From NCBI RefSeq assembly GCF_004010195.1, contig NC_057757.1, positions 2,185,940-2,224,679 of the forward strand: DNA of 38,740 nucleotides. Direction: 5' to 3'. The DNA comes from Chiloscyllium plagiosum (taxonomy: Eukaryota). The notes under the pieces are model-generated. The model searched no databases. It worked only from the letters and a program-made list of their open reading frames with translations, and was not told where the DNA came from. Position 1 is the stretch's first letter, and every line of letters begins with the position of its first letter. Both the position numbers and the translations under genes were made by a program. Below are positions 710 through 35,936 of this stretch, in pieces.

Positions 710-2692
710 AATGTAGCCATGAAGGAACTGAAGAATGGACTTAGGAGAGGTAGAGGGGGGTAATAAGAAAGCTTTAGTGGACAGGATTAAGGAAAGCCCT
801 GTGAGGAATGAGAGGATTACCAGAGTGAGGGTAGGGCTGATCAGGGATAGTGGAGGGAGGGAAGGTTCTGAATGAATACTTTTGCTTCAGTATTCACTAC
901 TGAGAGGGACCTTGTCACTCATGAGGACAGCGTGAAACAGGCTGATACACTCAAACAGCTTGATGTTAAGGAGGATGTGCTAAACATTTTGAAAAACAAG
1001 GCTAGATCAGTCCCCTGGGCCAGACGGGATATTCTCAAGGCTACTACAGGAAGCGAGGGAAAAGATTGCTGCACCTTTGGCGATGAACTTTGCATCCTCA
1101 CTGTCCACTGGAGTAATGCTAGATGATTGGAGGTTGGCAAATGTTATCCCTTGTTCAAGAAAGGGAATTCTTGAGAATTACAGACCAGTCAGTCTTACCT
1201 GTGTGATGGGCAAAGTATTGGGAGAGGATTCTGAGAGACAGGATTTATGATTACTTGGAAGGCCATAGTTTAATTAGATATAGTCAGCATGGCTTTGTGA
1301 AGGGCAAGTCATGCCTCACAAACCTTACTGAATTCTTTGAGGATGTGACAAAACACATTGATGAAGGTAGAGGAGTAGATATGGTGTACATGGATTTTAG
1401 CAAGGCATTTGATAAGATTCCCCATGATAGTCTCATTCAGAAAGTAAGGAGGCAAGGGATACAGTGAAATTTGGCCGTCTGGATACAGAATTTGCTGGCC
1501 CATAGAAGACAGAGGTGGTGGTTGATGGAAAGTATTCAGCCTGAAGCTCGGTGACCAGTGGTGTTCTGTAGGGATCTTTTCTGGGTCCTCTGCTCTTTGT
1601 GATCTTTATAAGTGACTTGGCTGAAGAAGTGGAAGGATAGGTTAGTAAATTTGCCGATGACATGAAGGTTGGTGGAGTGGTGCGTAGTGTGGAGGGCTGT
1701 TGTAGGTTGGAATGGGACATTGACAGGATGCAGAACTGGGCTGATAAATGGCAGATGGAGTTCAACCTGGAAAAGTGTGAAGTGATTCATTTTGGAAGGT
1801 CAAATTTGGATGCAGGATTCTTGGCAGTGTGGAGGAACAGAGGGATCTTGGGGTCCATGCCCATAGATCCCTCAAAGTTGCCACCCAAGTTATGATTTGG
1901 AGATGCCGGTGTTGGACTGGGGTGTACCAAGTTAAAAATCACGCAACACCAGGTTATAGTCCAACAGGTTTAATTGGAAGCACACTAGCTTTCAGAGCGC
2001 CGCTCCTTCATCACCTGAAAGCTAGAGTGCTTCCAATTAAACCTGTTGGACTATAACCTGATGTTGTGTGATTTTTAACTTTGGCCACCCAAGTTGTTAA
2101 GAAGGCGTATGGTGTGTTGGCTTTCTTTAGCAGGTGGATTGAGTTTAAGAGCCGCAAGGTTATGCTGCAGCTCTACAAAGCCCTGGTAAGACCACACTTG
2201 GAATATTGTTTTCAGTTCTGGTCTCCTCATTATAGGAAGGATGTGGAAGCTTTAGAGAGGGGGCAGAGGAGATTTACCAGGATGCTGCCTGGACTGGAGG
2301 GCATGTCTTATGAAGAAAGGTTGATGGAGCTAAGACTTTTCTCATTGGTACAGGTGTACAAGATGATAATAGGCATCGATAGACTGAAGAGTGAGAGACT
2401 GTTAGCCAGGGCAGAAATGGCTATCATAAGGGGGCATAATTTTAAGGTGATTGGAGGACGGTTTAGAGGAGATGTGAGAGGTTGGTTCTTTACACAGAGC
2501 GTGGTGTGTGCGTGGAGTACATTCCGTGTGGTCGTAGTAGAGTCAAATACATTAGGGATGTTTCAGCGACTCTTGGATAGGGACATGGATGATAGTAAAA
2601 TTAAGGTTACGTAGTTTTATCCTACAGTAGGATTAAAGGTCAGCACTACATCAAGGGCCCAAGGGCCTGTACTGTGCTGTACTGTTCTATGT
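710..2692 (+). mobile_element. HER1/CR1-type LINE, 5'-truncated and decayed (RT region to 3' tail)
   Basis: ORF pieces QHGFVKGKSCLTNL, YMDFSKAFDK, KFADD and LYKALVRPHLEYC-QFWSP with stops and frameshifts. Tail GGGCCTGTACTGTGCTGTACTGTTCTATGTTC. Confidence 0.92.
1892..2083 (-). mobile_element. Short fold-back Penelope-derived element inserted in a HER1 LINE
   Basis: Inverted arms 1929-1995 / 2015-2081 (3 mismatches). Minus strand reads gTGATGA-AGGAGCGGCGCTCT-GAAAGCTA. GCCACCCAAGTT is duplicated at 1880-1891 and 2084-2095. Confidence 0.75.
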
Positions 2693-3969
2693 TCACCTGG
2701 AGGAGACCCACGCAGACAGTGTAAACTTCCCACAGTCGCCCGAGGGTGGAATCAAACCCAGGTCCCTGGTGCTGTGGGGCAGCAGTGCTAACCATGGAGC
2801 CACCATGCCAGACATGATGGAACTAGTGGGGTTTTTTTTCATGACAATTGCGATACTGGGATTCTACGTTTAAATTTGCCCTGTTGTTTGTTTTCGTTTC
2901 CAGGCCATTTACTCATCGAGGCCCGGAATCTCATTGAGATCATCTCACGCCACTCAATGTCATTGACTGGTGTACCTGACCCAATGGTGGCCATTTTGGG
3001 TGCCACCTCTCTCTGAGCCACACTGCTGCTGGTGGGGGGGGGGGGGGGTTGCTGCACAAGGAAACCCCTCCCCCCCACCCACCTACCAGACTGCCCGCCT
3101 CAGTGTACCCACTCAAGGGGCTACCCCTGAAGCGCTCTCTTGGTCGGCTACGATACACCAGCACTCCCCAACTCCCAGCCAAGACAGAGAAACCTGGCAA
3201 CTCCCTGCACCCAACTTGGAATAAATTCGGAGCTTCTTTCAAAGAGCTAGCATGGGCACGAGGAGCCGAAAGGCCTTGCTGTGCAATTCTGAAAGGGAGA
3301 CACCACCTCCTTACCTCTCCGTCGATCCCTCCTTATCCGTGTCAATGCCTTGCTCTCCAGCAGCCCCTGCAGGAAGCTCAACCTCACTGCGGGACTCCCC
3401 ACTTCCTGTGGCAGGTCCGAGCGGACATTCGCAAACGACATTGACACATCCCCCTGAAGGAGAAAGCAGAGCAGAGCAGAGTGGGCACGGTTGGCACTGA
3501 GCATTAAGACAACCCAACTCGAGACATTAGATCCACCACTGTCTGACCCTGCCAGCCCCATACCAGATAGCCGTGTTGGGTATTAAACTCCAATCAAACC
3601 AAGGTTCAGAAACCATGCACACAGCTCAAAGACTGACAGCTCACCACCACTTACTCCAAACCCAATGTCTAACTACAAATAGCTTCAGATGGTGCTTAAT
3701 TCCTTCCTTGTGTTCTTTAGTGTTAATGGGAACGTTCAAAATATCTTCCACTAATACGTTTGTTTAACTCCTGTGCCATTTTCTTGTACCCCAAAACCAT
3801 CTCCTCAGATTCATTTTCTTCCCTATTGTCCAAAACTTTCTCAATGTTGTTGCACAGTGCATCCTTGTGTTATCTTTCTCAGCTCTTCCTTAGCATAACA
3901 AAAAGCAGGAGACCATTCAGCCCTTCAGGTCTACTCCAGCATTCTAGTTAATTACGGATAATTTTCTAC

Positions 3970-4510
3970 TGGTACGGCCACACTTGGAGTATTGTGTACA
4001 GTTCTGGTCACCGCATTATAAGAAGGATGTAGAAGCTTTGGAAAAGGTGCAGAGAAGATTTACTAGGATGTTGCCTGGTATGGAAGGAATGTCTTACGAG
4101 GAAAGGCTGAGGGCCTTGAGGCTGTTCTCGTTGGAGAGAAGAAGTTTGAGAGGTGACTTAATAGAGACATACAAGATAATCAGAGGGTTAGATAAGGTGG
4201 ACAATGAGAGCCTTTTTCCAAGTATGGGGACGGCAAAACGAGGGGACACAACTTTAAAGCGAGGGGAGAGAAGTATAAGACAGATGTCAGAGGTAGTTTC
4301 TTTACTCAAAGAGTAGTAAGGGTATGGAATGCTTTGCCTGCAACGGTAGTAGATTCGCCAAGTTTAAGTGCATTTAAGTTGTCATTGGACAGGCATATGG
4401 ACGTACATGGAATAGTATAGGTGGGATGGGCTTCAGATTAGTATGACAGGGTGGCGCAACATCGAGGGCTGAAGGGCTTGTACTGCGCTGTAATGTTCTA
4501 TGTTCTATGT
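3970..4510 (+). mobile_element. HER1/CR1-type LINE 3' fragment
   Basis: ORF 3984-4316 [31 protein letters not shown]; (TGTTCTA)n tail. Confidence 0.9.
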
Positions 4511-4828
4511 ACTTCAATCCCGGGCTCAGAGCTCACAAATCTGTCAATCGCAGTCTTGCTTATGTTTCAACAATAGGACAGATGTTCTTCTCAGATAGAT
4601 AATTTGAAAGATTCACAATCCCGTGATTGAAAAAGTTTGTCACTGACCCTTCATTCTGCGACTGTGATCCTTCTTGCTCTAAACTTTCCAGGCAGAAGGA
4701 AACAGCCTTAAGTGAATTGGCTGAGAGCCCAAGCTTCCATTAGTCTGTTGAAACAGCCGACAGGGGAACTTCGCTTGATAGACAGCTTTTCCTTATCAAA
4801 TGATTGTGCAATGTTTACTTACACGAGG

Positions 4829-5517
4829 TGTGGGAAGAGATCTGCCACCCTACCTACCCATAGCAGGCCCACACCAAACATAGGAAAGCAAACTTGGCCA
4901 GACTATACCAGAAACACCCAGAATGCCTCAGCAATGACCAAGCAGGCTGACAAGTGAAAGCAGACAGCACTCGCAGACAAGGGACTACACTTCCCAACAC
5001 CCACTAACAATGCCAGATCAACACAGCTGTCCCAGGGCAGTCTCATAACCCAGCAATACCAAAGCCACACAAAGAACAGGTCAGACAGAGAGGCACCACC
5101 AAAGACCTCACTCCCAGGACAGGACAATAGAAACACCTCACTGGTTCAAAAAAGAGATATTCTCACCGACCTACAAAAGAGAATGGGAATCTCCTGATTC
5201 CATTGATACTGTTGGGATGCATCGAGAATCAGGACATTGTTCCGATAACTGGTTTCCAATTGTCACCATTGTAACTGGATTACTCCATTTCAAATACATT
5301 GTATCTTTCCCCATTTTAATTAATCTTCTTGTACAAGATTATTATAAAACCTGGCTTCTTCCTCAGCTAGAGGAAGAGAACCCTTAATCTACCTGCACAG
5401 ACAGTCAGTTCTGGGTCAGCCCAGTCAATTTCTCTTATTGCTTGTAATAAACAACTTGTCAATTTCACCATATCTGGTTTGTGAGATCTCGGATTTATTG
5501 GGCTAATTTCTCCGACA
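4829..5517 (+). mobile_element. Solo LTR (689 bp)
   Basis: Starts TGT, ends ACA, with imperfect terminal inverted repeats (TGTGGGA/TCCGACA). Flanked by CGAGG at 4824-4828 and 5518-5522. TATAAAA at 5343-5349 precedes AATAAA at 5446-5451. Confidence 0.8.
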
Positions 5518-6500: not shown

Positions 6501-6697
6501 TTTAAAAATCCAGATCTCAGAATCAGAACAGAGACTGCATTGTGAACATAGGGGCCTCTTTATTTTCTTCCAGACTCCCTCTGCTGGTATACCAGCATTT
6601 GGCAGCCTTAAGTGGACAAACGCTCCTTACACTTTTCAAATCACCAGTGTCCAGGGGTGAAGAAGTATCCCGCAATCAACATCACTAAAACCACAAT

Positions 6698-6700
<3 letters not shown>

Positions 6701-6752
<52 letters not shown>

Positions 6753-7123: not shown

Positions 7124-8010
7124 TTAGATACAGAGTGAAGCTCCCTCTACTGTGTCTCCATCAAACCCCTCCCAGCATAGGGACAGCACCAGGGTTAGAT
7201 ACAGATTAAAGCTGCCTCTACATTAAACACTCCCAGGACAGGGAGATAGATTCATATAAATCGCTAGAGTGTGGAAACAGACCATTCAACCCATCGAATC
7301 CACATCAACCCTCCCACTGCACCACCCCATCCTGTAACCTTGTATTTCCCATGGCCAATCCACCCTAACCTGCACATCCCTGGCCACTATGGGACAATTT
7401 AGCACGGCCAATCCACCCTAACCTGCACATCTTTGTGACTGTGGGAGGAAACCAGAGCACCCGGAGGAAACCCACACAGATACAAGGAGAATGTGCAAAT
7501 TCCACACAGATATTTGCCCGAGGCTGGAATTGAACCTGGGTCTCTGGCACCGTGAGGCAGCAGTGCTGACCACTGAGCCACCGTGCCACCCTTACTCTTT
7601 ACAGAATAAAGCTCCATCTAGTTTCCCCATCAAACACTCCCAGGACGGGGACAGCACGGGGTTAGATACAGTAAAGCTCCCTCTACACTGTCCCCCCATC
7701 CCAGGGCAGAGACAGCACAGGGTTAGATTCAGAGTAAAGCTCCCTCTACACTGTCCCCTATCCCAGGACAGGGTCAGCACGTGGCTAGGTACAGTGTAAA
7801 GCTGCCTTACACTGTCCCCCATCAAACACTCCCCAGGACAGGGACAGCATGGGTTAGATACAAAGTAAAGCTCCCTCTACACTGTCCCCCCATCCCAGGA
7901 CAGGGACAGCACGGGGTTAGATACAGAATAAGGCTCCTTCTACACTGTCCCCCCCCCATCCCAGGACAGGGACATCACAGGGTTAGATACAGTGTAAAGC
8001 TCCCTCTTCA
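7124..8010. repeat. Degenerate ~60-70 bp tandem repeat interrupted by HE1
   Basis: Recurrent GGGTTAGATACAGAGTAAAGCTCCCTCTACACTGTCCCC...CCCAGGACAGGGACAGCAC. Confidence 0.9.
7265..7591 (-). mobile_element. HE1-type V-SINE
   Basis: tRNA-like head with A/B boxes, central GGGTTTCCTCCGGGTGCTC domain, LINE-like tail. Confidence 0.85.
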
Positions 8011-9479
8011 CCCATTTGGATGAAGTATTCTAACCTCTGTTCCATAGTGAGGTGGTCACACATGTAAATGTTGAAGGTTTTTTCAGGTGGATAGGGACGC
8101 CCTAGAAACTGATGATGATCCCAGATTGCATTGTCCGGACTGGCACCAAGTCCCCGCTCACACCACCTCTCCCTGTGCCTGCCCACTGACCCCGATAGGC
8201 TCGACTCAGTCACCTTTCCAAAGATCTTCACCTCTCGCGTATCACCAGAGCCTCCCCTAGCCCTGCAATCATCCAAAGCTTTTTATTTCCCACAAAAAAA
8301 AAGGTTTACAGGTACTGGAAATCTGAAACAAGAACAGGAATGACTGGAGAAACTTAGCAGGGTCTGACAGCACATGGGGAGGGAGAGACTGGCAAGCATA
8401 TTCTTCTGTGTCCCTTGTTCCTATTGTTTTAATCTCATCCCGTTCAGGGCTTCAGTTACCTGGGGCCCTATGCTCTGAACTTGCTCCCCTATACCACTCG
8501 GCTGAACTCTGTCCTGTTCCTTAGTGGTGTTTTTTTTTAAAAAAACGCTGAAATCTTTGGCTCCCAGATTTGATCGCAATATCCCCTTGCGTAGTTTGGC
8601 GTTAAATATGGTTTGGGTGAAGGGACTCAGGCCCTACAATGATGTTAAAAGGCACTTGTAAACACAAGACCTGAAATAAAACAGATTTCGAGGAGCTAGG
8701 CTGGTTCATGTCGGACTGCAGGAAGAATGAGAGGAAATGGGAGAGGGAGAGAAAGATAGAGATAGAGTGAGAGAGAGAGAGAGACAGAGAGAGGTATGTA
8801 ATCCCTAGAGACGTCAATTTTAAGGGAAACCTGACACAGGGTGGAGGTCAAAGGAAGGAGAAAATAGCTTAGCAACTCACAAAGGGATGCGCTTTGACAG
8901 AGGTGGAGTTATGTCTTAACACAATTTACGACACTCTTCCTGTCTTGTCCTGTCAGATTCCAATGGGGGACCCATTCTGGCACAGTTTATCCTTGTTGTG
9001 TGTCATGGTTGCTAAGGCAACTGACTACTACCAGCTGCCAAATCCCACAACTTGCACTTTTCTTTTCCCTTCTTTGCAACCTTGAAATGTGGTTTTCAGA
9101 CAACGACGTGTTATCAAGGCGGCTTTCAGGAGCTGTCTTGGAGCAGACGCAGCCCCACATTTCCCCACTTCAGCCTTCCCTCCCACAAGCCTAGAAAAAT
9201 TCCTGCATTTTGCGAGCCAGGGGTGTAGGAGTTCTCCCCACCCAGCCAAGGGGGGGGGGGGGGAAACCGAGTAGCAGCTGCAGTATCCAGAGAATTCAGG
9301 GCGTTTGCTGATCCAGAGCCTAACAGGCCTCCAATTGCATTCTGGGAGCCGGAAAAAGATGGCATGAAATCCACAGGCCATTCAGCCCATCATGCCTGCA
9401 TCAACTCCGCCATCTCATCCGGATTTATTACCTCGTGCCAATCTCCTACCTCTTCCCTACACACCAAGAATCCAATGAA

Positions 9480-10325
9480 AAAAAACCGTGGATGCCGAAA
9501 ATTGGAAATCGCTGGAAAAGCTAAGCAGGTCTGGCAGCATCTGTGGAGAGAAATCAACGTCTCAGGTTGAGTGACCCTTCATCAGAACTGATGGTAGCTG
9601 GGAAAAAGGTTGGATGGTTTTTTTTTTGCAGATGGTAGAGAGTAAGTAGTAAATGATTAGATTAGATTAGATTACTTACAGTGTGGAAACAGGCCCTTCG
9701 GCCCAACAAGTCCACACCGACCCGCCGAAGCGTAACCCACCCATGCCCCTACATTTACCCCTTACCTAACACTACGGGCAATTTAGCACGGCCAATTCAC
9801 CTGACCTGCACATCTTTTGGAGTGTGGGAGGAAACCGGAGCACCCGGAGGAAACCCACGCAGACACGGGGAGAACGTGCAAACTCCACACAGTTAGTCGC
9901 CTGAGGCAGGAATTGAACCCGGGTCTCTGGCGCTGTGAGGCAACAGTGCTAACCACTGTGCCACCGTGCCGCCCACAGATGATAAGTGGGGATAGAGTCC
10001 ACACAGAGAGAACAGTTGGATGGACAAAGAAGTGCATAATGATTAGGCTTGGAGGCTGACTAGCTGCTGATGGGGACTGTTAGTGGGTTGCGTGTAATGG
10101 CAGACTGTGTAATAACAAGTAGACAGGCAGGAGGCTGGAAGAACACAGCAAGCCAGCCAGCATCAGGAGGTGGAGAAAGTGCCTCAAACCCTGAAGTTAT
10201 TGAACTCCGTATTGAGTCCTGAAGGCTGCAGGATTCCCAAGCAGAAAGTGTGGTGCTTTCGCTGAGCTTTGCTGGAGCACTGCAGCAAGCCTGAGACAGA
10301 GGCGTTGGCCAGGGAACACGGTGAA
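9480..10325 (-). mobile_element. Penelope-like (Neptune-type) element 3' end, interrupted by an HE1 SINE
   Basis: 10321-10184 minus reads PCSLANASVSGLLQCSSKAQRKHHTFCLGILQPSGLNTEFNNFRV*, containing the LxxLxPxGLN motif of PLE GIY-YIG C-termini. Degenerate hammerhead CTGATGA-AGGGTCACTCAACCT-GAGACGTT at ~9588-9553. Confidence 0.7.
9655..9974 (-). mobile_element. HE1 SINE, full length
   Basis: GGGCGGCACGGTGGCACAGTGGTTAGC head, central V domain, (TAATC)n tail. Confidence 0.92.
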
Positions 10326-11412
10326 GGGCGGGGGCGGGGGCGGGGTTGAAATTGAAGAATCCAATATTCCTCGAGTTAAAGCCTTGCGATGGCTTGCTTT
10401 CGAGTGCATTGAAAGAACGGACTTGGAATTCCCCTCAACTTTTCTTGTAAAATAATAATATGCAGAATCAGACAGAAGTGCAGCCGAAACATATCCTCTC
10501 ACACTCATCAGGACACGTCTGCAAGAATACCAAATCTCAAAGAGAATAACAACTTACAGTACACAGGAAGGGAGGCAGCTGATTGGCCAGCTGTCTGTCC
10601 TAATGAGTTTAGGACCTAAAGCTTTGAGGGTCTTTCAGCAGGACTGACTATCGGTTTGACCTCCCTCATCTGTAAATCCTGATCGGAAGATAGTATGCTG
10701 ACAGGTGCGACAGTAAGGAAGCAAGCGCTGGATTTGCTTCATATTTTTTATCAGTTAGCTGATAAGAGGATGTTTGATATGTGGCATTCACACCTTCCTG
10801 GCCAACACTGCTGGCTTACATAACGGCATTGCAAACCCAGGAGCCAATTTTAAAATTCCCAACCTCGTCTTCCAACCAGAAGCCTTTCCTCTCTCTGTAA
10901 CCTCCTCCTGTTCATACAGCCCTGAGATTTCTACCTCGCGCACCTTCTGGCCTCTTAGCCAACCCTGGATCTGCATTGTTTCACGTTGCCTCTGCCCTTG
11001 CTATCCTCTCTCACACTCTCTATCACTCCCTTTTCCTTCCGATCACTTCTTGAAATCAAACTCTACGATCAAGGCATTGGATAGCTACCTTGATATCTCC
11101 TTACGCAGTCAAATTCTGCCTTAATTATCACATGCCTCAGTCCATTTTACTATTTTAGAGACACCACCTAAATGCGCATTGCCTCCGATGGACGAACCTG
11201 CCCCCTTGTTGAAAACCTCTTGAAAATAATCTGTGCATTTAGCTCCTCCCTCAACCTCTCCCCTCAAGTTCTTTCGAATTGGCTCCCTTTAGCACATTAT
11301 ACCCATCACAACATAGATTACAAAAACCATACCTGATTATGTACCTCCTACCTTGATGCTTGAGTTTACTCTTTAACCTTGATAATCGTATGCCAACTAC
11401 ATACTGGGCACT

Positions 11413-14185: not shown

Positions 14186-14547
14186 ATATTTAAGGCAGCA
14201 GTGGACAGGACAGATATTTAAGGTGGCAGACGGGGTGGATATTTAAGGCGGCAGACGGGGTGGATATTTAAGGCGGCAGTGGACAGGACAGATATTTAAG
14301 GCGGCAGACGGGGTGGATATTTAAGGCGGCAGACGGGGTGGATATTTAAGGCGGCAGACGGGGTGGATATTTAAGGCGGCAGACGGGGTGGATATTTAAG
14401 GCAGCAGTGGACAGGACAGATATTTAAGGCGGCAGACGGGGTGGATATTTAAGGCGGCAGACGGGGTGACAGATATTTAAGGCGGCAGACGGGGTGGATA
14501 TTTAAGGCGGCAGACGGGGTGGATATTTAAGGCGGCAGACGGGGTGG
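14186..14547. repeat. Minisatellite, 14 units of 25 or 28 bp
   Basis: ATATTTAAGGCGGCAGACGGGGTGG interspersed with ATATTTAAGGCRGCAGTGGACAGGACAG. Confidence 0.95.
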
Positions 14548-19960: not shown

Positions 19961-21149
19961 GGCCTGGCATCCTGTGACCAAAGCAGCAGCCTTGAGAAGT
20001 CCCTGGGCCCACAGCCAGCTCCTTATGGTGTTGGACAAATGAACGTTGGGTCAATATTAGTCTTTTCCTCCTCCGACAAGTTTCAATAGCCAAGCTCAGT
20101 GTCACTCAGTCTCTGCGGCTCAAACTAATACATCCCCTACACAACAGCCTGCCCAACAATGTGCTCAAATCTCCCCTGCATGGGATGGGAACGTGTTGTG
20201 TGTGTGTGGTGGGAGGGGGGGAAGGAAGGAAGGAAGGAAGGGCAGAGACAGAGAGAGGCAGGGGCGGAGGTATATATAGATATAGAGAGAGAGATAAGCA
20301 GGGGCAGAGAGAGAGAGAGAGAGAGACAGGGGTTTCGGGTGGGAAGTTGGGGCCTGCAGTGGAAATCGGGATACATGAGAGGCCAAAGTTGGGTAAATCC
20401 CCTCAGCGTTATCCAGTGAACACAAGATTGTAATGTGGCTTCCTCACCGGGGGCTGCTTAGCTCTGACACTTGGTGCTTTTTATAGAGCTGGCAGGAACT
20501 AGCCCTGGCACCTGATCCACTCGTGGCGAGTCAACAACCCAACCCAGAGACTGTGGATGGGCACTGGCAGGAAGCGATGGCATACAGACAGCCCACAGAT
20601 TGACTTGCTGCCAATGGCCCAATCCACTGGGCAGACACAGACACACACAGACACACACAGACACACACAGACCTGCCTCTGCCGCTGAAACATCAGCTTG
20701 CTGGCCCCACTTACACAGCACCCTGAGCTAGGGACTGTGATCCCTGCCCCCTCACCCTCTCTCCCAGCCAGCCCTTGATAAACAAACTCGGGACAGCGAG
20801 ATTTCTCTGTCCAAGTTCTACCGTGGGACGGTGAGCATCATCGCTGATTGCAGAAGAGGGGGAAAAAAAAAACTCAAAACAACTGCGGATGCTGCACATC
20901 AGAAACAGAAACTGCTGGAGAAATTCAGCAGGTCTGGCAGCAGCTGTGCAGGGGAGAGAAACTGCGTTAATGTTTCGAGTCCAGTGATTCCTCTTTGGAA
21001 ATGTTAACTCTGTTTTCTCTCTCTCTCTCTACAGATACGGCAAGACAGAGTATCACCAACAATTGTCCCTTGAACGGAGTGGCTCGCTCGGCCATTTTGG
21101 GGAAGGGGAAGTCAGTTAAGAGTCAGTTGCATTGACTGAGGGGTCTGAA

Positions 21150-24040: not shown

Positions 24041-25002
24041 AGGTAACCAGATGGCATCAGGAAACTTTTGTTTGGCCCAAAGGTCATGGGTCAACGTATA
24101 CACAAGATCGACTCTGAACTGGAGTATACATGGTATTAACACACTTGAATTGGTGGAGGTCACCTCAGATGCCAATACAGAGGGCATTGGCAATGGCAAC
24201 TTGCACTTCTTGAAGATGGTAAAACATCCACCTAGGTGTTTCATGGTAGTGCAGGAGGACAGACCAGGGAGAGGTGACCAGAAGCTTGGTCAAAGAGGGT
24301 CGGGCAATGTCTCAGAGGAAGAGGAAGTAGCAGCTGGAGAGCTTAGGGCTCGGGCAGCTGAAGGCTCAGTAACAGTCATACAGTACGGATACACACCCTT
24401 CAGTCCAACATGTCCATGCTGACCAAGTTCCCGAAACTGAATTAGTCCCACTTGCCAGCACTTGGCCCATATCCCTCCAAACCCTTCCTATTCATATACC
24501 CATCCAGGTGCCATTTAAATGTTGCAATTGTACCAGCCTCCACCACTTCCTCATTCCATCCATGTACAACCCTCTGCGTGAAAAAGTTGCCCCTTAGGTC
24601 TCGTTTATATCTTTCCCCTCTCACCCTAAACCTATGTAGTCTAGTTCTGGACTCCCTCACCCTGGGAAAAAGACGTGCGCTATTTACTTTATCCATGCCC
24701 CTCATGATTTTATAAGCCTCTATAAAAAGGTCAGCCTCCTACACTCCAGGGAAACAATTCCCAGCCTATTCTGATAACTCAGTCTTGGCAATATCCCAGC
24801 GAATCTTTTCTGAACTCTTCCCAGTTTAATAACATCCTTCCTATGGGACAGATGTCAGAGGTAGTTTCTTTACTCAGAGAGTAGTCAGGGCGTGGAACAG
24901 TAGTAGACTCCAGGTGAGTGGTGCTGGAAAAGCACAGCAGATCAGGCAGCATCTGAGCAGGAAAACTGCTCATCATCAGGAATGAGACACAGTAGTAGAC
25001 TC

Positions 25003-25197
25003 TATTGCTGGAACAGCACAGCAGGTCAGGCAGCATCCAGGGAACAGGAGATTCGACGTTTCGGGCACATTCCTGAAGAAGGACCTGTGCCCGAAACGTC
25101 GAATCTCCTGTTCCCTGGATGCTGCCTGACCTGCTGTGCTGTTCCAGCAATAAAGTTTCAACTTTGATCTCCAGCATCTGCAGACCTCACTTTCTCC
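25003..25197 (+). mobile_element. Short fold-back Penelope-derived element
   Basis: Perfect 67-bp inverted repeat (25003-25069 / 25086-25152), 16-nt loop holding CTGAAGA, and a 3' tail containing CCAGCATCTGCAG. Flanked by ACAGTAGTRGACTC duplicates. Confidence 0.8.
25069..25104 (+). ncRNA. Minimal type I hammerhead ribozyme motif
   Basis: ATTC-CTGAAGA-AGGACCTGTGCCC-GAAACGTC-GAAT: stem I ATTC/GAAT, intact core, stem II with one mismatch, palindromic ACGT stem III, GUC cleavage triplet. Confidence 0.7.
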
Positions 25198-25689
25198 ACA
25201 GTAGTGGACTCGCCACGTTTAAGGGATTTAAATGGTCATTGGATAAACATATGGACGAGAATGGAATAGTGTAGGTTAGATGGGCTTCAGACTGGTTTCA
25301 CAGGTCGGTGCAACATCGAGGGCCGAAGGGCGCTGGAATGTTCGATTTACATCCCTGTCACGACAGAATCCCAATGGATTCCCAGCTCACCAGGGAGTGT
25401 GCACCCAGGGTGAATCCAGACTTGTAGACTGTAGGCAGAGCTTGCTCAGACTCAACCTAGCTCCCCCTGGCCCACACAGCAAGGCATCTCAGCCTTCTCA
25501 CCTGAAGCAGGGCAGGGCTGGCAAGGGAGGAAGTCAGAAGGAGTTGAACCCACCACCTTCTCATTGGAAGGCAGTGGGGGGTGGGGGTCACAGGGGATTA
25601 GTGAGTCAGCTATGCTCCTCAGGAACTAAACCCTGATGTCTAGTGCAAGGGAAAACGCACCCCACTCTGCAGGGACCCGGGGGGAGGGA

Positions 25690-25882
25690 GGGAGGGAGGG
25701 AGGGGAGAGGGCAAATGCACACAGTCCTGACTGGGGCGGGGTAGGGCAGGGAGGGGAGAGGGCAAATGCACACAGTCCTGACTGGGGCGGGGTAGGGCAG
25801 GGAGGGGAGAGGGCAAATGCACACAGTCCTGGACTGGGGCGGGGTAGGGCAGGGAGGGGAGAGGGCAAATGCACACAGTCCT
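25690..25882. repeat. G-rich 51-bp tandem repeat (~3.6 units)
   Basis: GCAAATGCACACAGTCCTG recurs at 25711, 25762, 25813 and 25865. Confidence 0.92.
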
Positions 25883-25989
25883 GAGATTACTGTCCTTCCA
25901 AATAAACCTGTTGGACCTTAACCTGGAGTTGTGTGATTTTCCACTGCGTCCACCCCCCTCCAACACCGGCTCCTCCACATCACGGGAGT

Positions 25990-26281
25990 ATTGCACAGAG
26001 TCTACCCTGGGGTGGGTGGAGAGGGTGACATTGCACAGAGTCTACCCTGGGGTGGGGGGCGAAATTGACATTGCACAGAGTCTACCCTGGGGTGGGTGGA
26101 GAGGGTGACATTGCACAGAGTCTACCCTGGGGTGGGTGGAGAGGGTGACATTGCACAGAGTCTACCCTGGGGTGGGTGGAGAGGGTGACATTGCACAGAG
26201 TCTACCCTGGGGTGGGTGGAGAGGGTGACATTGCACAGAGCCTACCCTGGGGTGGGGGGCGAAATTGCACAGAGTCTACCC
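25990..26281. repeat. G-rich 40-bp tandem repeat running into a gap
   Basis: ATTGCACAGAGTCTACCCTGGGGTGGGTGGAGAGGGTGAC, about 7 units. Confidence 0.95.
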
Positions 26282-27771: not shown

Positions 27772-28385
27772 GTATCTGTTATTCGTATATAAACCACCCC
27801 GAGCACCTCGATTAGATTCCAGTCTGTAACTCACTCCCAGGTATCTGTTATTCTGTATATAAACCACCCTGAACCCCTCAATTAGATTCCAGACTGTAAC
27901 TCACTCCTGGGTATCTGTTATTCTGTATATAAATCTCCCTAACCCCTCGATTAGATTCTAGTCTGTAACTCATTCCTGGCTATCTGTTATTCTGTGTATA
28001 AACCACCCTGAACCCCTTGATTAGATCCCAATCTTTAACTCACTCCCAGGTATCTGTTATTCTGTATATAAACCACCCTGAACCCCTCGATTAGATTCCA
28101 ATCTGTAACACCCTCCCGGGTATCTGTTATTCTGTATATAAACCACCCTGAACCCCTCGATTAGATTCCAGTCTGTAACTCACTCCTGGGTATCTGTTAT
28201 TCTGTATATAAACCCCCCTGAACCCCTCGACTAGATTCCAATCTGTAACACCCTCCCGGGTATCTGTTATTCTGTATATAAACCACCCTGAACCCCTCGA
28301 TTAGATTCCAGACTGTAATTCATTCTGGGGTATCAGTTACTTTGTATCTCAACTCGTATATAATGCACTCCCTGGTATCTGTTGT
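27772..28385. repeat. 70-bp tandem repeat (8 full units plus partial)
   Basis: GTATCTGTTA, or a 1-nt variant, at 27772, 27841, 27911, 27980, 28050, 28120, 28190, 28260 and 28330. Confidence 0.95.
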
Positions 28386-29275
28386 TCTATGTGAAGTACT
28401 CAAACCTTCAATTAGCTTCTAAACTCTTGACATTTCTGTAATTTCTAATTGATTGCAGCCCTTTTCTGCCATTACACAGTGTAGAATCATCTGGAATTCC
28501 ACATGTGTGGAAAACCCAGGAGTTGTTGTCAGTCTTCAGAGGAGGAATGTGACAGCATCTCCACCATTGCCACGTTAGGATCCAGGCCAGTAGACGTGAT
28601 TGTGGTCTCAGTATAGATTTGAGATCTTTCTCGCTCGTTCTGCATGTCCTGCTATGTAAATTAGAATCAGTGTCCTCTGCTATCCCCTGCAAGTGTTTGG
28701 TTATGCCAAACACACAGTGGCATTCAGTGAATAAGGAGCAACGTCACTTATAGAATGGAGGACTGACATCTGAGAGGCAGTCTGTGTCGAAGAGCTGGCG
28801 TTTGGACCGAAATGGGCCAAGGGAACAGGTGCTAACCTAAGATGCCTCCAGAAAGTGTTGGCATTTGAGAAAGTGTCAGAAATGCAAAGAAGTGGTAATT
28901 GAAAGCAGGAATTGTGAGCGGAATTGTTGTGGGGACAACCAGGGAGGGGGGAAAATCAGTCAGATGAGTTGAGAATGGTGTCTGACACCGAACACGCCAC
29001 ATCCTGAATGTGAATGTTAAAGTGCTCAACGGTGTTAGCTTTCACGCTGTCTCTCTGTTTACACTGCTCAGGTTGCTGTCAATAACATCTCATTGTAGCC
29101 AATGCCATGAACCGGTCCCCAGCCTCTACTTTAACAGGAAGTAGATCAACAACGCAGAGGCAAAATACCACTCACTGGCTTTTATACTCATTTCAAAGCA
29201 CTGCTCTAAAGTGATTCGTGTTGCTGAAGCTTTTCACCTTGCGCTCGTCAAGACAAACACAAGAATGCCACATTG

Positions 29276-29612: not shown

Positions 29613-31409
29613 ACTCCACATGATGACAAAATCTGTTCAACAGCAGGAAAGAGGCCAGACTGATTCACAAGGTGACTTTGGCAGCTGCCCCCACCATCAC
29701 CTGACCTGACGCATTGAGGTCCAGAGTTCAAAAGCCACAGTGTGATTTCAATCTATCATTGATAGCGAGTGGCTCAGTGGTGGCGCCCATGAAAGTATGA
29801 TCGATTGTGTTGTAAAAGGAAACACCACAACTGGTCCTTCGGTGAAGGAAATCTGCCATCCTTAGCCCGTCTGGCTCTACACATGACTCCAGACTCCACA
29901 GACTACCCCTTTAGCTGCCCTCTGTAATGGCTTGAGGAAGCCACTCAATTCAATGTTAATTTGGGATGGGGGGAACAGTTGCCAGAGATAGCAGATGTGT
30001 TCCAGTTGGCTTTTTCCTTTGAGATTACAGAATCCCAGTTGTGTTGCTGCTCAAGGCAGCTTGCACTATGCTCTCATGTTACAGTAGTGACCACTTCCAT
30101 AAAAGAACTCCAGTGGCTGTGAGATGATTTAGCATGTTCTGTGGTTGCAAAAGGAGCTGAAGAATTGCAATGTTTTCTTTTGCAAAGATTCTTTCCTCCC
30201 GGGTCAGGTACCTCTCCACTACCCTTCCATTACCGTTCTATTTGGTACAAAGTACGAGTCTCATTATTTCCAACCCCAGATACATCAAACCCCTCCCTGG
30301 GCTTTCTCTCTCCACAGATGCTGCTTTGACCCTTTGGGGGGGGGGGGGCCTTGCAGGGTTTCTTCTGCTTAGAGTCCAAAATAGCAGCCTCATCTTATCG
30401 GTTGCAACGGATGTGGTTCTGTCCCTGGCAGCTGGTAAGTGTCACTGCGCAAGAGAAACAGCCACAGAATCAGTGAAGAGCTCACCCCTGAGAGAACCTA
30501 GTCAGTCTGTCACTTTGCACCGACTCGTTCAGTCCAGTTAGTCCTGCTCCCTCTCACTCTTTCCTCACAAAGCTCCCATATCCATCTCCTCCTTTTGGAA
30601 GGCTTTAAGAAATAAGAACAGGAGGAAGCCATTCGACCCCTCGAGTGTCCTCCAAGTGTGGCTGATCCAACATTCCCCATGTCCATAACCCTTGACTCCC
30701 CGACTGATGTAGAATCTGTCTCAGCCTTCAATATACACAAGGTCTTTACCCCACAGCTCTCTGTGGTACGGAGGTCCATATATGGAATGAGCTGCCAGAG
30801 GGGGTGGTAGAGGCTGGTACAATGAGAACATTTAAAAGGATCGATAATTGAGTGGGAAGGGTTTAGAGGGATATGGGCCAAATGCTGGCAAATGGGACTA
30901 GATTAGGTTAGGATATCTGGTCGGCATGGACAAGTTGGGCCAAGAGGTCTATTTCCATGCTGCACAACTCTATGACACCATTGATGAGAACAATTTATTT
31001 GTCAAAACACCTCGGATAAATCACCTCTTGATCTCTTGAGCGTCAAGGATTTTTTACAGGAATGTCATTGGAATGTCAATGTCCAAAGTCATCCTTCACA
31101 TTGAAATGTTATGTTTTGGAATCCTGGGAAAGCAAGAGGTGAGACCAGTTCTGGCAAAGAGTCACTGGAATCAAAGGGTTAACTCTCTGTTTTTCTCTCT
31201 CTGCAGAGGCTACCAGACCTGCTGAGTTTCTCCAGTGCTTCCAGTTTCTCGAGCAAGAAGTTAGACACTGGTTTGAACTTACAGAGTCACTTTGACCCAC
31301 GATTCTAACATGCAAAGTCCTTTCATCAGTCCCATTTGAAAATATAAATCTCAGAGACTTCAGCAAAGTTACTGTACATAGCCATAGGAGCAACACTCTC
31401 TGTGGGTTA

Positions 31410-32065
31410 GAGTCATACCTGACACATAGGAAGATGGTGGTGGTTGTTGGAGGTCAGTCATCCCAACTCCCGGTCATCTCAACAGGAGTTCCTCAGGGTA
31501 GTGTCCTAGGCCCAACCATCTTCAGCTGCATCATCAATGCCCTTCCCTCCACCATAAGGTCAGAAGTGGGGATGTTCGCTGATGATTACACAATGTCCAG
31601 CACCATTCGCCACTCCCCAGATACTGAAGCAGTCCGTGTCCAAATGCGATGAGATCTGGACAATATCAAGGTTTGGGCTGACAAGTGGCAAGTAACATTC
31701 TGAAGAAAGGTCACTGGCCCTGAAACGTTAATTCTGCTTTCTCTCCAAAGATGCTGCGAAACCCTGCTGAGTTTCTGCAGCAATTTCTGTTTTTGGTTCA
31801 GATTTCCAGCATCTGCGGTTCTTAGACTTATGACATCAAGTAACATACATGATGGACAAGTCCCACAGGAGAGAAGCTAATCATTGTACAATGGCAGTAT
31901 CATCACTAAACCTCCCACTGTCCATATTGTTGCTGGTACCATTGACCAGAAACGCAACTAGAATAGCTATACTGTAGCTATAAAGAGCAGGTCAGAATTC
32001 CCACTGCACTGGGAATTCTGCAGTGAGCAACTCACCTCCTGAGTCCCCAAAGCCTGTCCACCATA
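31410..32065 (+). mobile_element. RT fragment of a second CR1/L2-group LINE family
   Basis: ORF 31434-31652 GVPQGSVLGPTIFSCIINALPS...MFADD. Confidence 0.8.
31699..31836 (+). mobile_element. Penelope-derived tail starting at a hammerhead core
   Basis: ATT-CTGAAGA-AAGGTCACTGGCCCT-GAAACGTT-AAT followed by the CCAGCATCTGC tail. CAAGTAACAT is duplicated at 31689-31698 and 31837-31846. Confidence 0.7.
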
Positions 32066-32144
32066 AGATAAAGAAGCAGAACTGGACCATTCGGCCCATC
32101 AAGTCTACTCTGCCATTCAAACATGGCTGTCTATCAGGCACACG

Positions 32145-32750
32145 TCAGGAGAAAACTAGCCACCAGGATACATGAACACCAACTAGCCACAAAGCGACAT
32201 GACCCTCTCTCACTAGTATCCTTACATACCACTTCGACTGGGACAACACATCCATCCTGGGACAAGCCAAACAGAGACACGCGCAAGAATTCCTAGAAGC
32301 ATGGCATTCCAACCAGAACTCTATCAACAAACACATTGACTTGGATCCCATTTACCACCCCCTGAGAAAAAGAACAGGAAATGACATCACCAGGAAATGA
32401 TTAGATTCTCTACAGTGTGGAAACAGGCCCTTCGGCCCAACAAGTCCACACATCCCCTCCGAAGAGAAACCCACCCAAACCCATTCCCCTACTCTATATT
32501 TACCCTTGACTAATGCACCTAACACTATGGGCAATTTAACACGGCCAATTCACCTGACCTGCACATCTTTGGACTGTGGGAGTGTCACCACAGGAAATGA
32601 CATCACCAACCCAAAGAAACTCAAACATATAAATAGAAAGCGGGCTACACCACCGGTGCTTCAGTTGGAGGCTCACTGAAGATGTTACCTAGTATGGTGA
32701 CGAAACATCTGAAAACGAACCTTCCAGCTCAGCGAGCAAACCTACATCCA
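32145..32750 (+). mobile_element. Penelope-like element 3' end (GIY-YIG endonuclease C-terminus plus hammerhead-bearing tail), interrupted by an HE1 fragment
   Basis: From 32150 it translates to RKLATRIHEHQLATKRHDPLSLVSLH / HFDWDNTSILGQAKQRHAQEFLEAWHSNQNSINKHIDLDPIYHPLR (one frameshift), typical of Penelope/Poseidon-type endonuclease ends. Hammerhead core at 32673-32712. Confidence 0.8.
32673..32712 (+). ncRNA. Minimal hammerhead ribozyme motif in Penelope tail
   Basis: TCA-CTGAAGA-T-GTTACC-TAGTAT-GGTGAC-GAAACATC-TGA: 6-bp stem II, stem I TCA/TGA. The ACGT palindrome is changed to ACAT. Confidence 0.65.
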
Positions 32751-33519
32751 CATACTCTCCATTTACCTGGATGGGTGCAGCTCCAACAGCACCTCAATAA
32801 GCTAAATACCAACCAGAACAAAGCAGTCTGCTTCATGGGAACCATAACCACCACCTTCAATACTCACTCCCTTTACCACTGCCGCGCAGTGTGTATCGTC
32901 TATAGGATGCACTGCAGCATCTCAGCAAGGTAGCTTCCAAACTCCTGACGTCTACCATCTAGAAGGACAAATGCAGCAGATACGAGCGAACACCATCCCC
33001 CTTGCCAGTTCCCCTCCGAGCCCCTCCCCATCCCGACTTGAAAATACATCGGCCATTCCTTCAGTGCCTCTGCGTCAGAACCCTGGAACTCCCTTCCAAA
33101 CAACACCCCACACTACACGGGACTGCAGCAGTTCAAGAAGGCAGCTTACCCCCCCCCCCCACCACCTTCTCAAGGGGGCAATTAGGGATGGGGTGATAAA
33201 TGCAGGGTCCAGCCAGTGACACCCATATCCCATAAAACATGAAGTACAGATAAGATCTCTGACTGGGTAAAAGTAATGATTTTGACATCTTTCCAGATCT
33301 GATGAGTTATTTATTCACTTTGACTTTTCACTCTGGTGTACCGACACTGTACACATCACTGTTGACTCTCTAGGTGCTTATCTTGATGTTGGTGGTTAGA
33401 GTGTCCAGGTTTTATGAACTCACTCAACCTCTGGGTGTATCCTCCAAATGCCACAATGCCCCCCCATCCCCAACGGGACCTTTGCTCCTGGTTTAAGGAG
33501 TGACAAGGCTTAAGGCAGA

Positions 33520-34608
33520 CAGAGTTTAATTTGGATTAATGTGAGGTGTTACATTTTGATCAAGCAATTCAGAGCAGAACTTACACACTTAATGGTAGGG
33601 CGCTGGGAAATGTTGCTGAACAAAGAGACCTCAGTTCATAGCTCCTTGAAAGTGGAGTCGCAGGTAGACAGGATGGTGAAGGAGGCGTCTGGTATGCTTG
33701 CCTTTATTGGTCAGTGCATTGAGTACAGGAGTTGGGAGGTCATGGTGTGGCTGTACAGGACATTGGTTAGGTCACTGTTGGAATACTGTGTGTAATTCTG
33801 GTCTCCTTCCTATCAGAAGGATGTTGTGAAACTTGAAAGGGTTCAGAAGAGGTTTGCAAGGATGTTAGAGATGTACAGCATGGAAACAGACCTTTCGGTC
33901 CAACTCATCCAAGGATGTTGCCAGGGTTGGAGGGCTTGAGCTATAGGGAGAGGCTGAACAGGCTGGGGCTGTTTTCCCTGGAGCATCAGAGGCTGAGGGG
34001 TGACCTTATAGAGGTTTATAAAATCATGAGGGGCATGGATAAGGTGAATAGTCAAGGTCTTTTCCCCAGGGTAGGGGAGTCCAAAACTAGAGGGCATAGA
34101 TTTAAGGTGAGGGGGAAAGATTTAGAAGGGACTTAAGGGAGAAGTTTTTCACGCAGAGGGTGGAGTGTATATGGAACGAGCTGCCAGAGGAAATGGTGGA
34201 CAAGCAGGAGGCTGGAAGAACACAGCAAGCCAGGCAGCATCAGGAGGTAGAGAGGTCAACATTTCAGGTGTAACCCACAGTCCTGAACAGTCCTGAAGAA
34301 GGGTTATACCTGAAACGTTGAGTTCTCTGGCTGATGCTGCCTGGCTTGCTGTGTTCTTCCAGCCTCCAGCCTGTCTACCTTGGATTTCAGCATCTGCAGT
34401 GTTTTTTTTTAATCTCAAACAGGAGGTGGTGGACGCTGGTACAATGACAACATTTAAAAGGCATCTGGATGGGTTTATGAACAGGAAGGGATGACAGGAA
34501 TATGGGCCAAATGCTGGCAAATGAGACTAGATTAGTTTAGGATATCTGGTTGGCATGGACGAGTTGGACTGAAGGGTCTGTTTCCATGCTGTGCATCTCT
34601 ATGACTCT
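33520..34608 (+). mobile_element. HER1/CR1-type LINE 3' fragment with two nested inserts
   Basis: ORFs 33541-33795 and 33915-34136; tail CTCTATGACTC. Confidence 0.88.
34201..34420 (+). mobile_element. Short fold-back Penelope-derived element inserted in a HER1 LINE
   Basis: Inverted arms GGAGGCTGGAAGAACACAGCAAGCCAGGCAGCATCAG / CTGATGCTGCCTGGCTTGCTGTGTTCTTCCAGCCTCC. Hammerhead core CTGAAGA-AGGGTTATACCT-GAAACGTT at 34293-34319. Confidence 0.75.
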
Positions 34609-34689
34609 CAGGGTCACTGGACCCTCAACATTAACTCCGATTTCTCCCCGCAGACCTGCTGAGTTTCTCCAGCAATTTCTGTTTCCGTT

Positions 34690-35365
34690 AGTGACTTTAA
34701 ATCCATTTGTTCTTGACCCTTTTACAAGTGGGAACATCTCCCTATCTACTCTGTCCAGATTTCTCGTGACTTTGTAAACCTCCATCAGATCACCTTCTAC
34801 TCTCCAAGGAGAATAGTCCTGACCTGTGTTGTCTATCTTCACAGTTCACCCATGGAACTATTCCCTTGAACCTTTTCAGCACTCTCCCCAGTATGTCCAT
34901 GTTCTCTCTATAGTGTGGTGCCCAGAGCTATACACAATATTCCAGCTGAGATCGAACCAGTGACCTGTGTTAGTTCAGCATAATCTCCCTGCTCCTGTAC
35001 TCAATGTCCTGATTAATAAATCTCAAGAACAAGCAAGCTTTATTAACTTCTCCCCCCACCTTGAGCTGCCACCTTTCGTGATTTATACATACATTTGCCA
35101 AAGTCTCTCTGCTCTCACACGGCTCAAGAACTATATGTTTTATTTTAGACTGACTGTCCATGTAATTCTCACTAAATGCATCGCTATTGATCTGTCAGCT
35201 GCCTGTCTATTTGTCTACATAATTTAGGAATTCTACACTGTCCTCCTTACTGGTCTTCCGGGTGTTGTGTCATCTGCAAGGTTTGAAATTGTCCCCTGCA
35301 CACCAGAATCCAGATCATGGATATATTTCAGGGAAAACAAGGGCCCCAGTACTGACCCCGAGCAA
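34690..35365 (-). mobile_element. Older CR1-type LINE fragment
   Basis: Diverged SVLGPLF / ADD and GDLMEVYK pieces on the minus strand. Confidence 0.7.
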
Positions 35366-35759
35366 CCATTCTTCAGCGAGTGTGTCAGTATTTACAGGGG
35401 GGTACCCGAGGGGAGCGAAAAACTGACTGTTTCTTCTTCAATAATTCACGGGATGAGGGTGATACTGTCTCGACCCAGCATTTATTGCCCACCCCTAATT
35501 GCCCAGAGGGCAGTTACGAGTCAACCAAATTGTTGTGGGTCTGGAGTCACATGTAGACCAGCCCAGGGAAGGATGACAGTTTCCTTCCCTGAAGTGTATT
35601 AGTGAACCAGACGGGTTCTTTTTCTGACCATCAATTCATTAGACCCTTAATGCCCGAACTTTATTCAAATTCTGCCATCTGTCATGGTGGGATGTGAACC
35701 CCGGTCCCCCAGATCATTTCCTGGGCGTGGGGAATAACAGGCCCGTGCTAATACCACCA

Positions 35760-35936
35760 GGAGACATTGAGGACCGCAGATGCTGGAGATCACAGTCGAG
35801 AGAGTGGTGCTGGAAAAGCACAGCAGGTCAGGCAGCAACTCAGGAATCCAGATGAAGGGCTTCTGCCCGAAACGCCGATTCTCCTGCTCCTCAGTTGCTG
35901 CCTGACCTGCTGTGCTTTTCCAGCACCACTCTCTCA
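35760..35936. mobile_element. Short fold-back Penelope-derived element inserted in a SINE
   Basis: Inverted arms GAGAGAGTGGTGCTGGAAAAGCACAGCAGGTCAGGCAGCAAC and its complement. Mutated hammerhead AATC-CAGATGA-AGGGCTTCTGCCC-GAAACGCC-GATT at 35845-35880. TAATACCAC occurs at 35749-35757 and 35941-35949. Confidence 0.7.

Follow-up and report, generated by a model that had tools for sequence, protein, structure and literature searches.

What left the short hammerhead-bearing inserts that dot this stretch of a shark genome: small families moving as units, or the broken ends of larger retroelements? The window, meaning the whole stretch analysed, spans 38,740 nt of Chiloscyllium plagiosum contig NC_057757.1. 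We delimited 17 intervals derived from Penelope-like elements (PLEs) in it, which together cover 2492 bp (6.6% of called bases; Table 1). A ribozyme remnant is recognisable in about 12 of the 17, so the copy density put forward in a sequence-only reading, roughly one per 3–5 kb, is fair at one per 3 kb. The intervals form at least four sequence groups, and no alignment between groups is longer than about 30 nt.

Table 1. PLE-derived and associated features in the window (motif, position of C3)
Feature	Positions	Strand	Motif	Description
Hairpin A	1892–2083	-	2014	C3 lost at junction; GUGAUGA, AGCU-A, stem II 5 bp, stem I without first pair; tail ~35 bp, sense arm only
Target duplication of A	1880–1891 and 2084–2095			12 bp, GCCACCCAAGTT
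Arm X	8300–8392	-		Decayed, tail-only, group of 31700; without ribozyme core
Single arm B	9495–9591	-	9585	GAGA replaces GAAA; ACGU-U; stems 4 and 4 bp; 5' limit undefined
Arm Y	10117–10186	-		Tail-only; 96% identity to 34293 copy over 48 nt; after 10187–10312 frame
Copy E2	10440–10535	-		Decayed; CUGAUGA at 10511; placed in 29251 family by eye
Hairpin C	20881–21035	-	~20998	Decayed; long arm with degenerate core; short opposite arm begins at GAAA
Extra inverted arm near D	24912–24988	-		Between first and second of three target copies
Hairpin D	25003–25197	+	25073	Arms identical over 67 nt; unbroken core, ACGU-C, stem II GGAC/GCCC with A-C mismatch, stem I 4 bp; tail 45 bp, sense arm only
Target copies of D	24897, 24989, 25198			14 bp
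Arm Z	25888–25982	+		Tail-only; 82% identity to A over 94 nt
Family E	29150–29270 (approximate)	-	29251	Core UUGACGA, 2-bp stem II
Single arm F	31144–31255	+	31151	Decayed; degenerate core
Single-arm insertion G	31699–31836	+	31700	Begins one base before CUGA; unbroken core, ACGU-U, stem II 3 bp + mismatch, stem I 3 bp
Target duplication of G	31689–31698 and 31837–31846			10 bp, exact, CAAGTAACAT
GIY-YIG C-terminal remnant of PLE ORF (copy H)	32132–32392	+		Frameshifted
SINE-like high-copy repeat	32393–32582	-		Later insertion into copy H; absent from other copies
pLTR of copy H	32583–32750	+	32676	Unbroken core, broken palindrome ACAU-C, stem II 6 bp, stem I 3 bp; ATG 32682 at stem II start; predicted cut after 32709
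Hairpin I	34195–34412	+	34293	Unbroken core and palindrome, stem II 4 bp unbroken, stem I 2 bp; 10-bp duplication at junction; tail ~30 bp, sense arm only
Single arm J	34604–34690	+		Decayed; CUGANGA beyond recognition
Hairpin K	35758–35940	+	35849	Two defects (CAGAUGA, ACGC-C); stem II 4 bp, stem I 5 bp; tail 40 bp, inverted arm only
Target duplication of K	35749 and 35941			9 bp, TAATACCAC

Hammerhead motifs in the window

Motif comparison supports an identification as PLE-type minimal type I hammerheads, which come from several PLE families and are dispersed in the shark genome. All seven motifs named in the sequence-only reading are present where it placed them, and all seven copies carry the extra unpaired base after CUGANGA (between positions 9 and 10.1) and extend across the predicted cut site. 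The common CUGANGA/GAAA core assigned to them holds in part, as the 11-nt core is unbroken in four and has one change in the other three. Similarly, the palindrome ACGU or AGCU (positions 15.2–16.2, without a real stem III) stands in five copies and is replaced by ACAU and ACGC in two. Stem II has four to six uninterrupted pairs in five of the seven; the copy at 31700 pairs over 3 bp with a mismatch, and the GGGC/GCCC stem claimed for 25073 is in fact GGAC/GCCC, with an A-C mismatch. The suspected decayed copies near 20998 (minus strand), 31151 and 34610 proved homologous. The one placed at 29225–29255 lies on the minus strand in a different family (E), which reads GAAA-AGCUU-C with a 2-bp stem III.

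The motifs are more frequent than expected by chance. A strict descriptor matched once in the window (34293) against a shuffle mean of 0.025, and a relaxed one (one mismatch tolerated, stem II ≥3, stem I ≥2) matched four times against 0.2 in shuffles (at most 2 in any of 40 dinucleotide shuffles). A search with an nhmmer profile of 14 arms from the window regained the same arms at E values of 1e-27 to 3e-11, a result that is circular as a test, and beyond them returned only fragments at E ≥ 0.03 in the window. An Rfam search gave no hammerhead match at E ≤ 10; it returned microRNA matches at 1960, 25045, 34221 and 35820, because the inserts there are hairpins. Monomer folds of eight motifs were no more stable than shuffles (z −1.55 to +1.94), and unconstrained homodimer folds of four did not give the active dimer; neither result says much about activity. 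Three hairpins are predicted to bury their ribozyme.

These features resemble those of known PLE ribozymes. Metazoan PLE terminal repeats (pLTRs) contain minimal type I hammerheads (min-HHRs), which, in the main-text parts of Cervera and De la Pena 2014 (PMC4209133) on which we draw, occur mainly as scattered solitary motifs that are assigned to truncated PLEs, with many families per genome and opposite-strand pairs 100–700 bp apart; sharks are not named in those parts. The window motifs share with the min-HHRs described there CUGANGA, the extra base, stem II, GAAA, the palindromic 15.2–16.2 and a short stem I, and differ in that most copies are mutated.

Further copies were sought elsewhere. 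Metagenome contigs gave no match to a 26-nt pattern, and viral contigs and prokaryote genomes gave no further copies. Fourteen metagenome matches to a 21-nt pattern were set aside as chance, their likeness being restricted to the pattern itself. A search of sequencing runs listed no RNA run that contains the elements. In one poly(A) single-cell RNA run, an ill-suited library, read starts and ends did not pile up, and 97% of reads continued into unlike sequence.

Hairpin and single-arm insertions

Five inserts (A, C, D, I and K) are hairpins made of two head-to-head copies of one pLTR end, and in A, D, I and K only one arm carries the tail. All five have unequal arms and different junctions; D and K differ at the junction despite 84% identity, although these two are the only close relatives, which keeps the sample for this comparison small. 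The 140–220 bp families proposed as unit-length elements find no support: in the inserts of 180–220 bp, the arm is doubled, the junction differs from copy to copy, and the tail is one-sided. The five do not share termini together with an internal junction, as a fixed-length SINE- or MITE-like family would. For K, we rejected the idea that one arm arose by snap-back copying of the other, since each contains sequence that its partner does not.

Target duplications flank several of the inserts. Those of A (12 bp), D (14 bp) and G (10 bp) stand above the null, with scores so high in 3 of 145 random pairs. The borderline 9-bp duplication of K and a candidate at I have scores that the null also produces (9 of 145 pairs), and the same scoring found none at B, C, F, J, X or H. 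Neither inverted arms nor target duplications figured in the sequence-only description.

This architecture is that of endonuclease-bearing (EN+) PLE insertions, in which an inverted 5'-truncated copy adjoins the 5' end and one side has a 30–40 bp tail (Craig 2021, PMC8557442), and for which target duplications of 8–10 bp are reported (Arkhipova 2013, PMC3846280). A, C, D, I and K all have such an adjoining inverted copy; one-ended tails of 30–45 bp (A, D, I and K) and target duplications near 10 bp are further points in common. The hairpins depart from those units in having arms of only 25–135 bp and a junction within the ribozyme; with both arms so reduced, the unit consists entirely of a hairpin and has no ORF.

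Copy H and its coding sequence

A single ribozyme in the window can be tied to a coding element. A profile of 27 PLE ORFs matches the window only at 32111–32382, and the GIY-YIG remnant of copy H is 86–87% identical to a shark protein (P0002) with RT and GIY-YIG matches, both under Pfam's cut-offs; two frames of the remnant itself have no Pfam match. The coding sequence of P0002 continues through the ribozyme region. Read from the ATG at 32682, the translated frame matches the N-terminal ends of two full-length PLE ORFs with scores of 46 and 41, against 29 for the next best, and a score of 41 was reached by none of 2000 shuffles. Since the post-ribozyme sequence translates like an ORF start, the label "non-coding" fails for this copy. 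Copy H is a 5'-truncated coding PLE with an ORF beginning within the pLTR.

Relatives of copy H point the same way. Many in DNA runs reach into the ORF, and other copies of the family run beyond 32750. In DNA run X1, depth (a sum over contigs at 82% likeness, distinct from copy number) is similar in magnitude over the GIY-YIG remnant (290–695k), ribozyme (761k) and tail (1241k). It dips to 127k immediately before the ribozyme, without lasting loss upstream. Alignments between this family and the others do not exceed 18 nt.

Copy H follows the layout of PAc, a Poseidon element of Anolis carolinensis that cleaves and extends on both strands and in which two internal RT starts define the tail, the ORF starts at stem II, and uncut RNA is the main template in vitro (Frangieh 2024, PMC11167929). 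As in PAc, the ATG lies at the stem II start, the ORF N-terminus is in the pLTR end, and the insertion spans an uncut ribozyme. The predicted cut lies 27–28 nt past the A of the ATG, compared with a reported 26 in PAc. Copy H stops 69 nt inside the ORF, and other H copies are longer; PAc initiates at 111–118. Placement in the Penelope/Poseidon clade is putative and follows from this ATG-in-stem-II layout; the window has no RT.

A second remnant is less certain. Two copies had been placed directly downstream of GIY-YIG remnants; 32676 bears this out, and the second was not confirmed. A stop-terminated 42-codon frame (10187–10312, minus strand) upstream of arm Y is a candidate ORF end, which may resemble a Neptune-type endonuclease end. 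It has no credible homologue by word-based search, atlas, phmmer, the 27-ORF PLE profile or Pfam; three phmmer matches were discounted as repetitive proteins. No GIY-YIG sequence was found upstream of 29225 on either strand in the window. Among the roughly 12 ribozyme-bearing loci, H is the only one for which a parent ORF was found in the window, and the only one seen with a pLTR adjacent to an RT/GIY-YIG ORF.

Origin and meaning of the short copies

The inserts are probably heavily 5'-truncated, dead-on-arrival insertions of endonuclease-bearing PLEs and not independent small families. A PLE reverse transcriptase-endonuclease would nick one or both target strands 9–14 bp apart, and cDNA would be primed at either of two internal start sites, about 75–135 nt downstream of the ribozyme core, the choice of start giving an arm with or without the 30–45 bp tail. 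Synthesis would mostly stop in the ribozyme or just before it. One cDNA would yield a single arm, and two joined 3' end to 3' end would yield a hairpin. The ribozyme would be read through uncut, a passenger in these copies.

One regularity counts against plain truncation: all six definable 5' limits of short copies (A, C, D, G, I and K) fall at −6 to +1 of C3, a clustering that random truncation would not predict. More tentatively, the template RNA of the short families may start at the 5' boundary of stem I, set by a transcription start site or a splice acceptor, and internal priming at the first pLTR may leave a fixed-start stub of ~125 nt. A dimeric RT-endonuclease could then prime both target strands from one donor, with the cDNAs joined via the self-complementary stems of the ribozyme, which would make the hammerhead a boundary or joining element and not a cutter.

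The same clustering would be expected if all short families but H were non-autonomous, SINE-like elements, with a short RNA starting at the 5' edge of stem I and PLE proteins acting in trans, an account that we regard as rather unlikely. The short families have no parent ORF in the window, pLTR derivatives of this type exist in vertebrates (bioRxiv 10.64898/2026.07.22.740005), and rotifer pLTRs mobilise sequence in trans (PMC3846280). However, choosing loci by their core skews the 5' ends toward it; X, Y and Z, like the second arm of each hairpin, begin downstream of C3; neither lengths nor junctions are fixed; and depth in family H does not fall lastingly upstream of the ribozyme. Full-length PLE RNA starting near the ribozyme and primed internally at the first pLTR would give the same stubs, so the clustering needs no separate element. 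The sequence-only proposal of distinct non-coding families mobilised as units comes close to this account and is not supported.

It is very improbable that the inserts are monomers or relics of non-LTR retrozymes, which are self-cleaving repeats in head-to-tail tandem units that form circular RNAs (Cervera 2020, PMC7229834; bioRxiv 10.64898/2026.07.22.740005). Retrozymes are likewise short, type I hammerhead-bearing and pLTR-related; they are reported from one chondrichthyan genome, and dispersed monomers exist, in Xenopus. The small stem III of family E also resembles canonical metazoan motifs. However, the window has no tandem ribozyme units (none of 25 tandem-repeat rows, in the window only, overlaps a ribozyme locus), pairs are head-to-head and not head-to-tail, and the units show no permutation at the cut site. 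Least credible of all, for the palindromic inserts, is an origin as MITE-like DNA transposons, with terminal inverted repeats and a hammerhead match that is incidental. Five loci do have long near-perfect inverted arms, but one-sided tails and the single-arm copy G, with its own target duplication, already largely refute the idea. Because the arms are unequal, the inverted repeat does not reach both ends of an insert; target duplications range in length from 9 to 14 bp; and the motif is above chance and sits in a PLE pLTR at H.

Truncated PLE insertion thus remains the reading we prefer, and the inserts likely belong to an already described kind of element, not a new system. The literature already describes minimal hammerheads in PLEs, scattered truncated copies, inverted pLTRs and tails, and the whale shark is reported to be rich in PLEs (bioRxiv 10.1101/443036). 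PLE-derived pieces, at ~6.6% of the window, are of practical rather than discovery value: PLE hairpins imitate microRNA precursors and MITEs in annotation. The end of PLE integration was left unvalidated by Frangieh et al. (PMC11167929), and the 5' ends and junctions of such pieces, taken genome-wide, would bear on how it proceeds. If the template RNA does start at stem I, thousands of stubs would map the 5' ends of vertebrate PLE RNAs and second-strand joining.

Probable insertion ends and their hammerhead motifs

The loci behave like the insertion ends of endonuclease-bearing (EN+) Penelope-like elements (PLEs) with minimal type I hammerheads (min-HHRs), whose testable features they share. 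PLEs have been noted in the whale shark (bioRxiv 10.1101/443036), and no paper on hammerheads in shark PLEs turned up in a literature search conducted mostly outside subscription journals. All seven motifs named in the sequence-only reading were found where it had placed them. The CUGANGA and GAAA boxes are both intact in four (25073, 31700, 32676, and 34293), a single change within the boxes marks each of the others (35849, 9585, and 2014), and the palindrome preceding position 17 is undamaged in five of the seven. A strict descriptor matched the window once, at 34293 alone, while shuffles averaged 0.025 matches; under a relaxed descriptor there were four, compared with 0.2 expected and at most 2 in any of the 40 shuffles. 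The Rfam search of the window contained no hammerhead family match, and its weak microRNA matches coincide with hairpins.

Stem II had been described as varying across families yet still pairing. It is paired in five of the seven motifs, but each family contributes just one or two intact copies, so the comparison is not a covariation test. The copies described as decayed are indeed homologous, except that the motif at 29225-29255 lies on the minus strand, has a stem III of 2 bp, and belongs to another family. The intervals 29215-29270 (-) and 10470-10535 (-) contain hammerheads of a second type, which lacks the extra base and has AAGCUU as stem III; the minus-strand copy at 10511 in the latter interval is absent from the earlier list.

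Hairpin anatomy and target duplications

At five loci, two arms lie head to head and form a hairpin, each arm being one end of the PLE terminal repeat (pLTR), with tails outward (see table). This inverted-arm anatomy was overlooked in the sequence-only reading, and the proposed families of 140-220 bp need resizing: because the hairpins pair two arms, sizes of 180-220 bp are double arms, and the actual unit is 90-140 bp. The arms are unequal in four of the five hairpins, the inverted arm being the longer one in K, and the junction position varies from hairpin to hairpin. Pairing of the GAAA box and of position 17 with the opposite arm is predicted for A, D, and I (probability 0.95-1.0), so these copies would be unable to fold as ribozymes.

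Positions and properties of features in the window
Feature	Position	Strand	Second arm ends	Extra length on one arm (bp)	Target duplication	Remarks
Hairpin A	1892-2083	-	where stem II ends	35	12 bp, exact	
Hairpin C	~20881-21035	-	at GAAA			
Hairpin D	25003-25197	+	inside loop II	45	14 bp, one mismatch	three target copies bracket two inserts
Copy G	31699-31836	+			10 bp, exact	
Hairpin I	34195-34412	+	at stem II start	~30		10-bp duplication at junction
Hairpin K	35758-35940	+	near stem I 3'	40	9 bp, exact	
tRNA match	36226-36298	+				Rfam, 47 bits, several non-standard pairs
Minisatellite	7625-8011					period within 25-70 bp, without ribozyme core
Minisatellite	14213-14547					period within 25-70 bp, without ribozyme core
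Minisatellite	25693-26256					period within 25-70 bp, without ribozyme core
Minisatellite	27772-28347					period within 25-70 bp, without ribozyme core

Among 145 random pairs, 3 reached the target duplication scores of A, D, and G, and a further 9 resembled K; the remaining loci tested in the window gave no convincing duplication. At 24897-25211, the 14-bp target stands in three copies, between which lie a lone inverted arm and hairpin D, an arrangement reflecting two insertions into one site or a single complex event. The interval 31797-32026 is matched by an organism B contig (record 9 of run X11) with 10 differing letters and 10 gaps; because this contig bridges the 3' junction of G, it suggests that this insertion is older than the split from organism B.

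Copy H and its coding parent

A frameshifted GIY-YIG C-terminus sits upstream of the ribozyme core of copy H at 32676 (+). Two copies had been placed downstream of such remnants, which holds for 32676; the second remnant is unconfirmed, because a profile of 27 PLE ORFs matched nothing in the window besides the H remnant. At 10117-10312 (-), a stop-terminated 42-codon frame (10187-10312) leads directly into a tail of the family of hairpin I, with the ribozyme absent. The frame may resemble a Neptune-type endonuclease end, but none of the sequence searches applied to it confirmed this likeness or a PLE origin.

The H remnant matches eight proteins; in four, which are named as carpet-shark proteins, the GIY-YIG fragment sits inside host-gene models. 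The carpet-shark protein P0002 is 86-87% identical to the remnant, has reverse transcriptase (RT) and GIY-YIG matches that are both under Pfam cut-offs, and continues its reading frame across the ribozyme region; a search with it returned 52 longer proteins, the majority with a recorded RT domain. An ATG at 32682 coincides with the stem II start, and its frame aligns with the N-termini of P0013 (score 46) and P0011 (score 41), both full-length ORFs (next best of 60 proteins, 29), a score of 41 being reached by none of 2000 shuffles. The anole Poseidon element has the same ATG, stem II, and ORF-start layout (PMC11167929). In the annotated shark proteins P0001, P0003, P0004, and P0005, the C-terminal end is the translated H-family GIY-YIG C-terminus; thus, host gene models often include this PLE, either exonised or mis-annotated.

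Reads from 4 of 24 runs were placed on 31680-32790. Summed depth, which does not equal copy number, ranged in the DNA run X1 from 290k to 695k across the GIY-YIG remnant and reached 570k at 32592-32629; it was 127k at 32630-32667, rose to 761k across the ribozyme, and stood at 1241k in the tail. The profiles of X11 and X16 were similar in shape. The depth over the remnant means that numerous H relatives extend upstream into the ORF. This reading of depth covers the H family; copy G has diverged and lacks a reference upstream. Since depth recovers further upstream, the dip at 32630-32667 probably reflects divergence of the H copy. Other copies of the family skip a repeat at 32393-32582 and run on beyond 32750. 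Across the ribozyme and tail of H (32668-32743), the minus strand received about 3-4 times as many first mates as the plus strand in the RNA run X21. No pile-up of read starts or ends appeared in the raw RNA run (poly(A), single-cell, ~2% read, 4477 reads placed), although a library of this kind makes that weak evidence.

Proposed insertion mechanism and the template RNA

Each insert probably represents a single short cDNA or a pair of them, with priming at staggered nicks. The PLE protein cuts and extends both strands and uses two internal start sites that delimit the tail (PMC11167929). PLE insertions are described as truncated at the 5' end, lying next to an inverted copy and carrying a tail of 30-40 bp on one side (PMC8557442); rotifer elements show target duplications of 8-10 bp and palindromic junctions, and antisense self-priming has been put forward for them (PMC3846280). 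Truncated PLEs have been named as the source of dispersed single min-HHRs and of pairs on opposite strands (PMC4209133). Either arm of K carries sequence absent from its partner, and both have T at a site where most other arms have A. Because the arms differ in content yet share this T, the pattern is consistent with a pair of cDNAs copied from a single donor, or with subsequent conversion.

The 5' limits of six short copies (all definable ones) fall between -6 and +1 relative to C3, the ribozyme position used as locus anchor, a small sample biased by choosing loci for the core; H extends 544 bp upstream, and the minus-strand copy E (29150-29270) at least 20. A template beginning at that place would explain the clustering. 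A D. virilis intron terminates at helix I (PMC4209133), 46 + 75 nt past the start site (PMC2377424). Immediately before stem I of the minus-strand copy B (9495-9591), a pyrimidine-rich run ending in CAG (9592-9655, -) is splice-acceptor-like and may be upstream pLTR instead of flank. The intron and this run offer a lead only toward an RNA-start explanation. A non-autonomous origin of the short families seems unlikely to us and is retained because their parent ORFs were not found.

Cleavage by min-HHRs was low, dimers included (PMC4209133), and uncut RNA serves the PLE protein in vitro (PMC11167929). The predicted cut site is spanned by all seven named copies; therefore, the template RNA was uncut or religated.
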